This document shows, piece after piece, positions 22,709 to 39,931 of a stretch of DNA of 44,544 bases. The translations under genes and the position numbers were made by a program. The stretch is from sequence record ON185580.1; one strand, given 5' to 3'. The notes under the pieces were generated by a model that searched no databases, was not told where the DNA came from, and worked only from the letters and a program-made list of their open reading frames with translations. Source of the DNA: Escherichia phage EC120. Numbering within the stretch: position 1 is the first letter of the stretch; each line of letters starts with the position of its first letter.

Positions 22709-23917
22709 ATGTCTACACCGAATACTCTGACTAACGTTGCTGTATCTGCATCCGGTGAGGTTGACAGCCTTCTCATTGAGAAGTTTAATGGTAAGGTCAA
22801 TGAGCAGTACCTGAAAGGTGAGAACATTCTGTCCTACTTTGATGTACAAACTGTTACTGGCACTAACACAGTGAGCAACAAATATTTGGGCGAAACTGAG
22901 TTGCAGGTGCTAGCACCGGGTCAGTCTCCTAATGCCACCCCCACTCAGGCGGATAAAAACCAGTTGGTAATTGATACCACTGTCATTGCTCGTAACACTG
23001 TGGCTCACATCCACGATGTACAAGGTGACATCGATAGCCTGAAACCAAAATTGGCTATGAACCAAGCCAAGCAACTGAAACGTCTGGAAGACCAGATGGC
23101 AATTCAGCAGATGCTGTTAGGCGGTATTGCTAACACCAAGGCCAAACGTAACAAGCCGCGTGTTAAAGGGCATGGCTTCTCTATCAACGTTAACGTAACT
23201 GAGAGTGAAGCACTGGCTAACCCTCAGTATGTTATGGCTGCGGTAGAGTATGCTCTGGAGCAACAGCTTGAGCAGGAAGTGGACATCTCTGATGTAGCTA
23301 TCATGATGCCGTGGAAGTTCTTCAATGCTCTGCGTGATGCAGACCGAATTGTAGATAAGACTTACACTATCAGCCAGTCTGGTGCAACCATTAATGGCTT
23401 CGTTCTCTCTTCTTATAACTGCCCTGTGATCCCGTCTAACCGATTCCCTACCTTCGCTCAGAATCAGGCTCACCACCTGTTGTCTAATGAAGATAACGGC
23501 TATCGTTATGACCCTATCGCAGAGATGAATGGTGCAGTTGCTGTTCTGTTCACTGCCGACGCACTGCTGGTGGGTCGTACCATTGAAGTGACTGGTGACA
23601 TCTTCTATGAGAAGAAAGAGAAGACTTATTACATTGACACCTTCATGGCTGAGGGTGCAATCCCTGACCGTTGGGAAGCAGTGTCTGTAGTTACCACTAA
23701 ACGTAATGCAACTACTGGTGCTGCTGAAGGTTCTGGTGATGATCACGCAACCGTACTGGCTCGTGCACAGCGTAAGGCTGTATATGTCAAAACCGAAGGT
23801 GCTGCGGCTGCATTCTCTGCTGCCCCAGCAGGTATCCAAGCGGAAGACCTTGTAGCGGCGGTACGTGCTGTAATGGCAAATGACATCAAGCCGACTGCAA
23901 TGAAACCTGCTGAGTAA
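22709..23917 (+). CDS. Major capsid protein
   Basis: 402 aa; own promoter, strong RBS TAAGGAGA and a terminator directly downstream; T7 gp10-like position. Confidence 0.9.
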   Translation: MSTPNTLTNVAVSASGEVDSLLIEKFNGKVNEQYLKGENILSYFDVQTVTGTNTVSNKYLGETELQVLAPGQSPNATPTQADKNQLVIDTTVIARNTVAHIHDVQGDIDSLKPKLAMNQAKQLKRLEDQMAIQQMLLGGIANTKAKRNKPRVKGHGFSINVNVTESEALANPQYVMAAVEYALEQQLEQEVDISDVAIMMPWKFFNALRDADRIVDKTYTISQSGATINGFVLSSYNCPVIPSNRFPTFAQNQAHHLLSNEDNGYRYDPIAEMNGAVAVLFTADALLVGRTIEVTGDIFYEKKEKTYYIDTFMAEGAIPDRWEAVSVVTTKRNATTGAAEGSGDDHATVLARAQRKAVYVKTEGAAAAFSAAPAGIQAEDLVAAVRAVMANDIKPTAMKPAE

Positions 23918-35352: not shown

Positions 35353-35747
35353 GAGAAGATGGTGTTATCTTGAGCAAGAAGGGACAGCCGATGGTTGGTG
35401 CTATTCGTGAAAGAGGATACCGCACAGTAACATTAAGGATAGATAATAAATCCAAGACTTATAAAGTACATAGGTTGATTGCATGGAAGCATGTGCCGAA
35501 CCCTCATAACTATAAGGTTGTTAACCATAAAGACCGCAACCCATCTAATTGCCATAAAGATAACCTAGAGTGGTGCACTCAACAGGAAAACACTATACAT
35601 GCACACTATGGTTGTCTTGACATACAAGATAAAATAGATGAAGCCAAAGCATTAAGAAGCCAAGGCTGGTCTTATCCTAAAATCGGTAAATACTTTGGGT
35701 TAGACCATAAGACTGTTTGGTATTGGATTAATGGGAGAAGAACTTGA
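35316..35747 (+). CDS. HNH homing endonuclease (copy 1)
   Basis: HNH signature VNHKDRNPSNCHKDNLEW...QQEN; overlaps holin 3' end and small terminase start. Confidence 0.7.
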   Translation: MYSEVERAGYIIREDGVILSKKGQPMVGAIRERGYRTVTLRIDNKSKTYKVHRLIAWKHVPNPHNYKVVNHKDRNPSNCHKDNLEWCTQQENTIHAHYGCLDIQDKIDEAKALRSQGWSYPKIGKYFGLDHKTVWYWINGRRT

Positions 35748-36043
35748 GCGTACATAACAAACATGCAGCTACAGAAGACGAGGTTGGCATTCTGCATGGT
35801 GCTATTACCAAAATCTTCAATAAGAAAGCACAGGCAATACTGGACACTATAGAAGAAGACCCTGATGCAGCACTGCATTTAGTGTCTGGTAAAGACATTG
35901 GAGCTATGTGTAAGTGGGTTCTTGATAACGGCATTACCGCCACACCTGCTGCACAGCAGGAAGAATCCAAGTTATCTAAGCGCCTCAAGGCTATCCGAGA
36001 GGCATCCAGTGGCAAGATTATTCAGTTTACAAAAGAGGAGTGA
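35744..36043 (+). CDS. Putative terminase small subunit (TTG start)
   Basis: 99 aa directly upstream of large terminase; no in-frame ATG near the 5' end; GGAG 8 nt before TTG 35744. Confidence 0.45.
   Translation: MSVHNKHAATEDEVGILHGAITKIFNKKAQAILDTIEEDPDAALHLVSGKDIGAMCKWVLDNGITATPAAQQEESKLSKRLKAIREASSGKIIQFTKEE
35835..35857 (+). promoter_or_regulatory. Phage promoter-like sequence inside small terminase gene
   Basis: CAATACTGGACACTATAGAAGAA; 3 upstream mismatches to the consensus. Confidence 0.45.
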
Positions 36044-36044
36044 T

Positions 36045-36488
36045 ATGCATAGATGGTGTGAATCTCAAGGTTATACCATCTTACCTTCTGGTGTCATCCT
36101 TTCAAAGGGTGGCACCCCTCTCAAACCATTCAAGGCGGGTAGGGGTTATTTAGCAGTTAAAATTAAAAATAAAGAAGGTAAATGGCGTAATGTCTATGTT
36201 CATCAATTAGTGGCTTATAAATATTTACCTAAAACTAATAATGAAGTAAACCACAAAGACGGCGATAAGCACAACAATGATGTTAGCAACTTGGAGTGGG
36301 TAACAAGAAGCGAGAATAACTATTTAAAATGCAATGGAAATGATAGGAGTGCCTTAAATAGCTATTTAGCAAGATTAAAAGATTGCTTCTTGCAAGGTAA
36401 GGGTGTAGCAGAAACCGCTAGACTTACTGGTAAAAGTGAACCAAGAGTTTCTTCTCTCTTTAAGGAGTGGCGAAATGGCAAAGGCTAG
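36045..36488 (+). CDS. HNH homing endonuclease (copy 2)
   Basis: GAGGAG RBS then ATG 36045; VNHKDGDKHNNDVSNLEW...RSEN; clearly paralogous to copy 1; overlaps large terminase start. Confidence 0.75.
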   Translation: MHRWCESQGYTILPSGVILSKGGTPLKPFKAGRGYLAVKIKNKEGKWRNVYVHQLVAYKYLPKTNNEVNHKDGDKHNNDVSNLEWVTRSENNYLKCNGNDRSALNSYLARLKDCFLQGKGVAETARLTGKSEPRVSSLFKEWRNGKG

Positions 36489-38373: not shown

Positions 38374-38394
38374 TTACTGGACACTATAGAAGGA
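38372..38394 (+). promoter_or_regulatory. Phage-RNAP promoter overlapping terminase stop codon
   Basis: AATTACTGGACACTATAGAAGGA; expected +1 G at 38389. Confidence 0.75.
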
Positions 38395-38525
38395 AGGCCC
38401 AGAGAATAAGAGAAATAACAAGGATAATATAGTTAACCTAGGTTATATAGGTTACTATAGTATGGGTGTACTCCTGTACACCCTATTCCTACTTACTATT
38501 TACTTATATGTATAAGGAGTATTAG

Positions 38526-38807
38526 ATGGCTAATGATTATAGTGATCAACCTTTAACGGGTCGATATGACCGTAAGCAGATTACACCGACCAGTGAGGCA
38601 TTAATGCTCCCTGTTGTTACAGAGGAGTCTATTACGAAGAAAGCCAATGTTATCAATGATGCAACCAAATCTGGTAAACAGAAAGCAGCAATGGTATGTC
38701 GTCCTGTAGGTGGCACTCTTGAGATTGCCATTGCTACTGGTAGCAAAGAGGATGCAGATTGGTTGTCTGTTAAAATGGACAGCGTTGGTCTTATTACACC
38801 GGCTTAA
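38526..38807 (+). CDS. Hypothetical protein (93 aa), paralogue A
   Basis: Shares SGKQK(A/G)AMV and (E/Y)IAIA(T/R)GS blocks with the next ORF. Confidence 0.6.
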   Translation: MANDYSDQPLTGRYDRKQITPTSEALMLPVVTEESITKKANVINDATKSGKQKAAMVCRPVGGTLEIAIATGSKEDADWLSVKMDSVGLITPA

Positions 38808-38824
38808 TAAAAGGAGAAGATAAT

Positions 38825-39112
38825 ATGTCTAAGTATGGCGATGCAGGTACGACTACTGGTCAGGTTTTTCGTGTAAAAGCAGTACAAACTATTGCAACTG
38901 CAATTCCTATGCCTATCGTGGCAGAAGCTGACCTTAAAAAGAAAGATCATCCAATTAATATTGAACACCTATCTGGTAAGCAGAAAGGTGCTATGGTGGT
39001 TGTAGATAAAGGAGATAGCCTTTATATTGCTATTGCGCGTGGCTCTGCACCAACTGACAAGTGGGATGCAACTACTATGGAGGTGACACCTGTCACTCCA
39101 GAAGGGGATTAA
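38825..39112 (+). CDS. Hypothetical protein (95 aa), paralogue B
   Basis: Tandem paralogue of 38526-38807; AAGGAGAAGA RBS. Confidence 0.6.
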   Translation: MSKYGDAGTTTGQVFRVKAVQTIATAIPMPIVAEADLKKKDHPINIEHLSGKQKGAMVVVDKGDSLYIAIARGSAPTDKWDATTMEVTPVTPEGD

Positions 39113-39114
39113 TA

Positions 39115-39459
39115 ATGCTTAACAAATACTTCAAGCGTAAAGAGTTCGCTTGCCGTTGTGGGTGCGGTACATCCACTGTTGATGCTGAATTACTACAGGT
39201 AGTCACAGATGTGCGTGAGCACTTTGGTTCTCCTGTAGTTATCACTTCGGGGCATCGCTGTGCTAAGCACAATGCTAATGTAGGAGGAGCTAAGAACTCC
39301 ATGCATCTTACTGGTAAGGCTGCTGACATTAAGGTACGAGGCATCTTACCTTCTGATGTACATAAGTATCTTACTGATAAGTACCAAGGCAAGTATGGTA
39401 TTGGTAAATATACCTCCTTTACTCATATTGATGTACGTGACGGGTGTGCACGATGGTAG
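39115..39459 (+). CDS. Endolysin, peptidase M15-type (zinc D-Ala-D-Ala carboxypeptidase/L-Ala-D-Glu peptidase fold)
   Basis: SGHRC...H...D pattern (ITSGHRCAKHNANVGG...HLTGKAADI...HID) typical of the M15 family; ATG 39115 (track start 39061). Confidence 0.7.
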   Translation: MLNKYFKRKEFACRCGCGTSTVDAELLQVVTDVREHFGSPVVITSGHRCAKHNANVGGAKNSMHLTGKAADIKVRGILPSDVHKYLTDKYQGKYGIGKYTSFTHIDVRDGCARW

Positions 39460-39567
39460 GTTGTGTTGCATGGTGTGAACGCATGGTTGCTAAGGCTTCA
39501 GAGGAAGGCAACTATGAAGATTGGCAGAACTACTCAACTTTATTAGCTCAATGGAAAGGGAGATGCA

Positions 39568-39717
39568 ATGAAAAAGCTGTTCAAATCTAAGAAGGTTGTA
39601 GGTGCACTAGTTGCATTGGCAATTGCTCTTGTTTCTGTAGGTCTTGGTGTAGACCTTGGCTCTGGCACGGAATCCTCTGTGACAGATGTGGTCTGCCAAG
39701 TGATCACCTGTGAATAA
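39568..39717 (+). CDS. Small membrane protein (49 aa) in lysis region
   Basis: AAAGGGAGA RBS; N-terminal basic residues then TM VVGALVALAIALVSVGLGV. Confidence 0.35.
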   Translation: MKKLFKSKKVVGALVALAIALVSVGLGVDLGSGTESSVTDVVCQVITCE

Positions 39718-39931
39718 GTTTCTAGAAGTGCTGGCAGGTCTTATTGGCCTGCTTGTCTCTGCTAAGAAGAAACAAGAAGAGAAGGAGGCACAAAGTGAAG
39801 CGAATCATGCTAGCGACAATCCTGCTGATTGGTTCGCTGACCATTTCAGGGTGTCAGCAGGTGTTACCAGAGAAAGCAATGGTGAAACCTCTGAGGCCGA
39901 CGCTGACGGAAGTTTACGAGGTAGACGATAA
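39710..39931 (+). CDS. Candidate i-spanin-like membrane protein (GTG start, 73 aa)
   Basis: N-terminal TM FLEVLAGLIGLLVSA then charged region; contains the lipoprotein ORF in the +1 frame. Short for an i-spanin and weak RBS. Confidence 0.3.
   Translation: MNKFLEVLAGLIGLLVSAKKKQEEKEAQSEANHASDNPADWFADHFRVSAGVTRESNGETSEADADGSLRGRR

Follow-up and report, generated by a model that had tools for sequence, protein, structure and literature searches.

Two adjacent open reading frames (ORFs) on the (+) strand, encoding 93 and 95 aa and called gp41 and gp42 below, lie in the late region of the window, by which we mean the whole 44,544-nt stretch of phage DNA analyzed here. Both are present exactly as an earlier sequence-only reading of this DNA had described them, with the gene for the large terminase (TerL) on the 5′ side and an M15 endolysin gene on the 3′ side (Table 1), and each ORF has an AAGGAG ribosome-binding site 6–8 nt upstream of it. 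The 1 kb of DNA around the pair shares 99.8% identity with Vectrevirus LI10P3, 98.8% with Escherichia phage ULINTec4, and about 81% with K1E and AAPEc6. Based on these nucleotide identities, we assign the window to Vectrevirus, i.e., to the K1E/K1-5-like phages of the Autographiviridae, subfamily Molineuxvirinae.

Table 1. Features of the window discussed in the text
Feature	Position	Strand	Remarks
Major capsid protein	22709..23791	+	tblastn: 75% identical to its Kp7 counterpart over 361 residues
Small terminase	35744-36043		Pfam DNA_Packaging_2
HNH endonuclease ORF	35898-36488	+	Pfam HNH_3, E 4.4e-11
Large terminase (TerL)	end 38373		77% identity to Kp7 TerL
Putative phage RNA-polymerase (SP6/K1E-type) promoter, core CTGGACACTATAGAAGGA	38377..38394	+	Exact match; begins 4 nt past the terminase stop codon
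Leader hairpin GGGTGTAC-TCCT-GTACACCC	38464..38483	+	8-bp GC stem followed by a pyrimidine-rich tract; between promoter and gp41
First paralogue (gp41), 93 aa	38526..38807	+	ATG start; orthologue of K1E/K1-5 gp41, SP6 gp42, PP1 gp43, Kp7 gp45
Second paralogue (gp42), 95 aa	38825..39112	+	ATG start; orthologue of K1E/K1-5 gp42, SP6 gp43, Kp7 gp46
M15 peptidase endolysin	39115-39459		Starts 2 nt past the stop codon of the second paralogue
Holin, then spanin			3′ of endolysin
Tailspike with endosialidase-chaperone domain			3′ of lysis genes

The surrounding genes showed some peculiarities of their own. The HNH ORF sits between the small and large terminase genes, overlapping both ends, and the small-terminase gene contains, just 5′ of the HNH ORF, another copy of the phage promoter (35840-35857). 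The terminase region of K1E likewise contains a homing endonuclease (gene 40.5), and its TerL is annotated as 40B. In the lysis cassette, a 48-aa ORF (39444-39590, [+] strand) that overlaps the end of the endolysin gene had no family match, and a 73-aa ORF (39710-39931, [+] strand) belonging to phrog_9219 (unknown function) overlaps the spanin region in another frame.

The pair had been described as standing under its own promoter, and at the level of the motif this was borne out by the exact copy of CTGGACACTATAGAAGGA directly behind the terminase gene, the flanks of which agree with the consensus (A/T)TTTACTGGACACTATAGAAG. Allowing up to three mismatches, we counted eight copies of the core motif in the window, all on the (+) strand, with 0.03 expected by chance. 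SP6, Pectobacterium phage PP1, and Klebsiella phage Kp7 carry equivalent promoters at the same place, and the copy in front of gp41 is predicted to be active.

Between this motif and gp41, the leader (38395-38525) consists, in order, of AU-rich TAGG repeats, the hairpin, the pyrimidine tract, and the ribosome-binding site. The hairpin had a local folding energy of −14.7 kcal/mol (z = −3.6), and none of 200 shuffled sequences proved as stable. We compared this leader with those at L002 2029-2174, L003 2245-2409, and L007 19397-19546, folding the hairpins one by one, and found that the layout of promoter, hairpin, and gene is kept in SP6, PP1, and Kp7. Specifically, the SP6 and Kp7 stems are also 8 bp long, GC-rich, and located at the same position, and they are built from other sequences (GGGAGGUA/UACCUCCC and GGGUACUC/GAGUACCC, respectively). 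A close relative, MK373771, annotates the hairpin as a putative terminator; a terminator placed 3′ of its own promoter is an odd arrangement. The hairpin could terminate part of the transcripts, mark a processing site, or stabilize the mRNA.

Paralogy, distribution, and age of the family

Pairwise alignment of gp41 and gp42 revealed 33 identities over 83 residues (40%; E-value of 8e-13, BLASTP with compositional adjustment), covering nearly the entire proteins and extending beyond the SGKQK and IAIA.GS blocks from which the relationship had initially been proposed. The Smith-Waterman score of 115 compares with 27.2 ± 5.0 (maximum 52) in 2,000 shuffles, which corresponds to z = 17.6. A similarity confined to low-complexity sequence, named in the sequence-only reading as the outcome that would speak against paralogy, is therefore ruled out by the composition-adjusted search, the shuffle test, and the spread of the similarity along the whole chain. 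Both proteins also matched phrog_2725 from end to end (residues 1–93 of both), with E-values of 8.5e-37 for gp41 and 6.8e-45 for gp42, and a six-frame HMM scan detected exactly these two family copies in the window.

Next, we compared the pair with its R4596 and K1E orthologues. The dN/dS ratios were 0.10–0.30 for the first gene and 0.14–0.26 for the second, similar to those of the adjoining endolysin gene (0.22–0.25). Both genes are therefore under purifying selection and maintained as coding genes. At the amino acid level, gp41 is 62% and gp42 is 84% identical to its K1E counterpart. The dS values are similar (1.01 for the first and 0.87 for the second), and within the genus it is the first paralogue that changes faster.

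Using tblastn, we found the family in 182 phage records, the hosts of which include Escherichia, Klebsiella, Salmonella, Proteus, Vibrio, Pseudomonas, Pectobacterium, Aeromonas, and others. The more distant records often or mostly displayed a single detectable copy by this method, in counts that are lower bounds because SP6 was scored as having one copy despite carrying two. Tandem copies number two in K1E and SP6 and three in PP1 (gp43-45), Kp7 (gp45-47), and the R4596-type phages. The order of TerL, family genes, and lysis genes is common to R4596, SP6, PP1, Kp7, F5M1D, and K1E, and the pair in the window stands at this same conserved place, with a promoter motif and a hairpin in front of it.

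The R4596-type Vectreviruses carry a third, 229-aa paralogue between gp42 and the endolysin, which we found in 33 phage records. This protein (phrog_32357; L001 3283-3972) consists of the module shared with gp41 and gp42 and a 150-residue C-terminal extension of unknown fold. The six-frame scan returned no third paralogue in the window, and this gene is a presence/absence polymorphism among some Vectreviruses and their relatives.

A neighbor-joining tree, drawn without bootstrap support values, and the matrix of pairwise identities placed gp41 of the window, SP6 gp42, PP1 gp43, and Kp7 gp45 in one group, the gp42-type genes in a second, and the C-terminally extended third paralogues in a third. 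Because the first-position genes of four lineages cluster in this way, the duplication is, as judged from the tree, older than the split of Vectrevirus, Zindervirus, Axomammavirus, and the Kp7 lineage within the Molineuxvirinae. The clades common to these four lineages, together with dN/dS values within 0.10–0.30 for both genes, agree with the earlier proposal of an old duplication maintained in tandem.

Single-copy homologues, for which the sequence-only reading had suggested a search, do exist. In Pectobacterium phage PP99, a single family gene lies on the stretch from TerL to the lysozyme gene. In two metagenomic contigs (L010 1632-1919 and L011 1023-1310), the DNA from the promoter to the endolysin start contains as its sole family copy the gene for a hybrid protein (P0102) with a gp41-type N-terminal part and a gp42-type C-terminal part, joined at the SGKQKGAM block. 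This hybrid represents either a natural deletion through recombination between the paralogues or an assembly artifact; the coverage of the contigs is low. As for PP99, its single copy of the gp41/gp42 family follows gp48 (L008 4346-4957), a 203-aa protein encoded directly after TerL that contains an Sf6-type tail-needle-knob domain (Pfam E-value of 1.8e-46). Given that gp48 and the family gene both follow TerL in PP99, the slot behind the terminase seems to be a collecting point for small virion-surface modules.

Module architecture and predicted fold

A profile search run exhaustively over 1.84 billion representatives yielded 205 hits at an E-value of ≤0.001. To describe domain architectures, 152 proteins were re-scored, mostly from the 150 listed hits, and the following counts refer to these. 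Single-module proteins were the most numerous (87/152), followed by proteins with three detected modules (25/152, two of which also carry a C-terminal extension). Two modules were detected in 17 of the 152, mostly with the same length of 260–300 aa as the triples, and an N-terminal module followed by a C-terminal extension was found in another 17 (126–438 aa in total). Doubles of ~180 aa were nearly absent; the short proteins with two modules numbered just two, of 164 and 205 aa. In a 44.8-kb T7-like contig, the gene directly 3′ of TerL encodes a three-repeat protein. The same T7-like metagenomic phage also encodes an 89-aa early-region protein (L004 8141-8410) with a precomputed Pfam match to the Tad2-like (anti-Thoeris) family.

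The domains of the single-chain triples were all most like the gp42 type and did not map one to one onto the three clades, which excludes an origin of these chains as fusions of a gp41/gp42/third-paralogue array; the triplication is therefore independent. Each repeat keeps a G-D-K or T-G-Q arm motif, an S-G-K-x-x-G strand, an A-x-G-S turn, an invariant Trp, and a terminal T-P-A. A scan of IMG/VR with the 438-aa extended homologue returned no match. P0263 (794 aa, eight matched stretches), a candidate giant member, failed a stricter local search and proved to be an unrelated Ig-like repeat protein.

In gp41 and gp42, the module consists of an N-terminal arm of ~30 conserved residues with a T-G-Q/K motif, a compact alpha/beta core of ~55 residues that includes an S-G-K-Q-K-G-A-M-V strand, an I-A-x-A-x-G-S strand, and the invariant Trp, and a C-terminal end with a conserved T-P-A. 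Structure prediction had been proposed as a check on the pair. The AF2 model of gp42, built from 122 sequences, reached a pLDDT of 70.6 (moderate confidence), with a core (residues 30–85) of beta-alpha-beta-beta-beta order, the helix being short, at a pLDDT of about 80; the conserved first 30 residues were modeled with low confidence. A Foldseek search of this model against the PDB returned nothing below an E-value of 0.5, and a search against BFVD retrieved, besides members of the family, longer phage proteins in which the module is N-terminal. Sequence searches of the PDB with each of the two proteins, and with a profile of 16 sequences, gave no match, and the PDB contains no family member. 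For a three-repeat homologue, AF2 predicted domains that fold singly (pLDDT 80–90), with a pTM of 0.31 that makes the model uninformative about how they pack. Since no structure has been solved and no significant fold neighbor was found, a capsid map resolving the family would add a new decoration-protein fold.

Candidate roles of gp41 and gp42

The sequence-only reading had held that the pair has no assignable function. The position it gave for the two genes stands, and the statement on function is outdated, given the mass-spectrometric identification of the Kp7 homologues gp45, gp46, and gp47 in gel bands of purified virions (preprint, bioRxiv 10.1101/2024.05.19.594906). The same study named gp45-gp47 minor capsid proteins and described the T7-like phages Kp9 and Kp11 as lacking them. 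In GenBank ON148527, Kp7 genes 45 and 46 are annotated as "minor capsid protein" and gene 47 as "minor capsid protein with Ig-domain." We found that gp41 of the window is 41% identical to Kp7 gp45 (E-value of 1e-18) and that gp42 is 51% identical to Kp7 gp46 (E-value of 8e-20) and 32% identical to the N-terminus of Kp7 gp47 (E-value of 2e-6). The Kp7 proteins match the same PHROG, phrog_2725, and their genes occupy the slot between TerL and endolysin, as in the window. The C-terminal half of Kp7 gp47 scored 31.2 with Pfam Ig_3, against a cut-off of 30; its best PHROG match was "Hoc-like head decoration" (4e-23), and its nearest PDB sequences include the Ig domain of T5 pb10 (5lxk, E-value of 2.8e-16; 8zvi, E-value of 6e-17).

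Since purified Kp7 virions contained the homologues, which carry the annotation of minor capsid proteins, we lean toward reading gp41 and gp42 as small accessory proteins of the capsid surface, located on the outside of the phage head. Further points in favor are the 75% identity of the two major capsid proteins, the modular build of the family, expression of the pair together with late structural and lysis genes, purifying selection on both genes and their conservation across several genera, the recurrence of three modules, and the precedent of tandem decoration proteins in related podophages. Their association with the virion as such, by analogy with Kp7, we consider likely. The deposited Kp7 capsid structure (7y3t) matched the major capsid protein and no family member; the capsid location of the family therefore rests on the naming by the Kp7 authors. 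In the literature searched, we found no experiments on the K1E, K1-5, SP6, or source phage proteins and nothing usable on virion proteomics or capsid structures of K1E, K1-5, SP6, ACG-C91, or PP99.

The databases offer a different role. phrog_2725 is labeled "acetyl-CoA acetyltransferase," a label that is carried by RefSeq and many phage records and that apparently stems from the annotation of K1E gp42 as "putative acetyl-CoA acetyltransferase." Taken at its word, it would make gp41 and gp42 thiolases, and its inheritance from K1E gp42 through phrog_2725 is the sole support for that identity. Thiolases are ~390 aa long, and gp41 and gp42, at 93–95 aa, reach about a quarter of that size. Neither protein had a Pfam match of any kind at an E-value of ≤1, a match in NCBIfam, or a match among PDB sequences, and no thiolase occurred among the fold neighbors of the gp42 model. 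A thiolase would have N- and C-terminal domains with a catalytic Cys; Pfam, NCBIfam, the PDB, and fold comparison give such an identity no backing, and we give the enzymatic reading practically no credence.

Two further roles deserve consideration. gp41 and gp42 might be non-structural late proteins, such as an assembly or maturation chaperone or a lysis-timing or anti-defense factor, that co-purify adventitiously with virions. Their place directly 5′ of the endolysin, holin, and spanin genes, with a transcript in common, would suit such a role, as would the lack of family members in the deposited Kp7 capsid model and a copy number that is dispensable (one to three), down to the single hybrid copy. 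Against this, all three Kp7 paralogues came from purified-virion bands, the module is fused to Ig and other surface-type extensions typical of exposed structural proteins, and neither Pfam nor NCBIfam suggests an enzyme or a regulator, so that we judge a non-structural function unlikely. We regard it as less likely still that the pair forms tail or neck components of the virion, e.g., bases or anchors of fiber-like appendages near the tailspike adaptor.

Under the capsid-surface reading, the pair would be transcribed late from the promoter at 38377, along with the lysis genes, and the two proteins would attach to the exterior of the mature T=7 capsid through the conserved arm and core, with the major capsid protein as the proposed binding partner. 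The bare modules, gp41 and gp42, would coat or cement the shell. The module would serve as an anchor that in relatives carries outward-facing domains, such as the Hoc/pb10-type Ig domain, and the divergence of gp41 from gp42 would probably reflect non-equivalent lattice sites or co-assembly. For this phage, we infer the anchor role, the capsid-surface location, and any stoichiometry.

The preference for three tandem genes or three repeats per chain hints at a three-module unit, a suggestion that we make only tentatively. The window has two copies and some relatives apparently one, and a strict three-module unit is therefore not required. We likewise consider it rather unlikely that the family is a capsid-anchoring module of a new structural kind operating in threes, whether as three genes, as two that share sites, or as one three-repeat chain. 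Such an arrangement would be a "split pseudo-trimer" decoration system with a fold unlike those of gpD, Dec, Soc, Hoc/pb10, and the alpha-claw. If it were true, a three-unit anchoring module would offer a natural plug-in point for displayed Ig domains and other C-terminal extensions.

The two genes are long-sequenced members of a known, poorly characterized family and are ordinary for this phage group. What the analysis contributes is the correction of a misannotation that has spread widely and a pointer to what is likely a new decoration-protein module. The mislabel reaches SP6-like and other Autographiviridae through annotation pipelines (182 phage records with a match), and "acetyl-CoA acetyltransferase" should become "virion/minor capsid protein, Kp7 gp45/46 family." Should the capsid-surface role hold, therapeutic phages of the Vectrevirus and SP6-like groups would carry an unrecognized pair of surface proteins that could influence particle stability, immunogenicity, or adhesion, and the ~90-residue module, which accepts C-terminal fusions in nature, would lend itself as a possible anchor for display.

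Comparison with known systems

Among established capsid decorations, lambda gpD and the phage L protein Dec (trimeric cement) may resemble gp41 and gp42 in their role as small stabilizers of the capsid surface, and the three-repeat chains of the family hint at a three-module unit; gpD and Dec were absent from the fold neighbors of gp42. T5 pb10 and T4 Hoc combine a capsid-binding domain with an Ig-like domain, a two-part build that Kp7 gp47 shares. However, the match of T5 pb10 to Kp7 gp47 is limited to the Ig domain, and the N-terminal anchors of the two are unrelated by sequence. gp41 and gp42 themselves contain no Ig domain detectable with Pfam.

The organization of the locus is also reminiscent of pairs in related podophages, PhiM1 gp43/gp44 (PMC11440229) and Ar-KM gp54/gp55 (bioRxiv 10.64898/2026.05.18.726046), both of which are tandem paralogous decoration proteins with a common anchor, one of each pair carrying an extra displayed domain. 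These alpha-claw/alpha-paw proteins (PhiM1 gp44/gp43, HRP29, and Ar-KM gp55/gp54) share with the present pair the small size, the tandem paralogy, and the late region of an Autographiviridae genome, and they sit on the capsid surface, the location we favor for gp41 and gp42. In contrast to the latter, their helix-turn-helix anchors dimerize into a four-helix bundle at two-fold axes. Membership in this group is ruled out for the present family: the secondary structure predicted for gp42 is rich in beta strands with a single short helix, and neither sequence nor fold matched any PDB chain. The alpha-claw/alpha-paw system is an analogue of the family described here and not a member of it.

The closest comparison is with Kp7 gp45-gp47, which share homology, the same slot, and the same promoter and hairpin leader, in a phage with a capsid protein 75% identical to that of the window. 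Kp7 differs in having a third paralogue with an Ig domain, whereas the window has two bare modules, and virion association is known for Kp7 alone. Finally, K1E/K1-5 gp41-gp42, SP6 gp42-gp43, and PP1 gp43-45 are orthologues and paralogues of the pair, found at the same position and without substantial differences, with two copies in K1E and SP6 and three in PP1.
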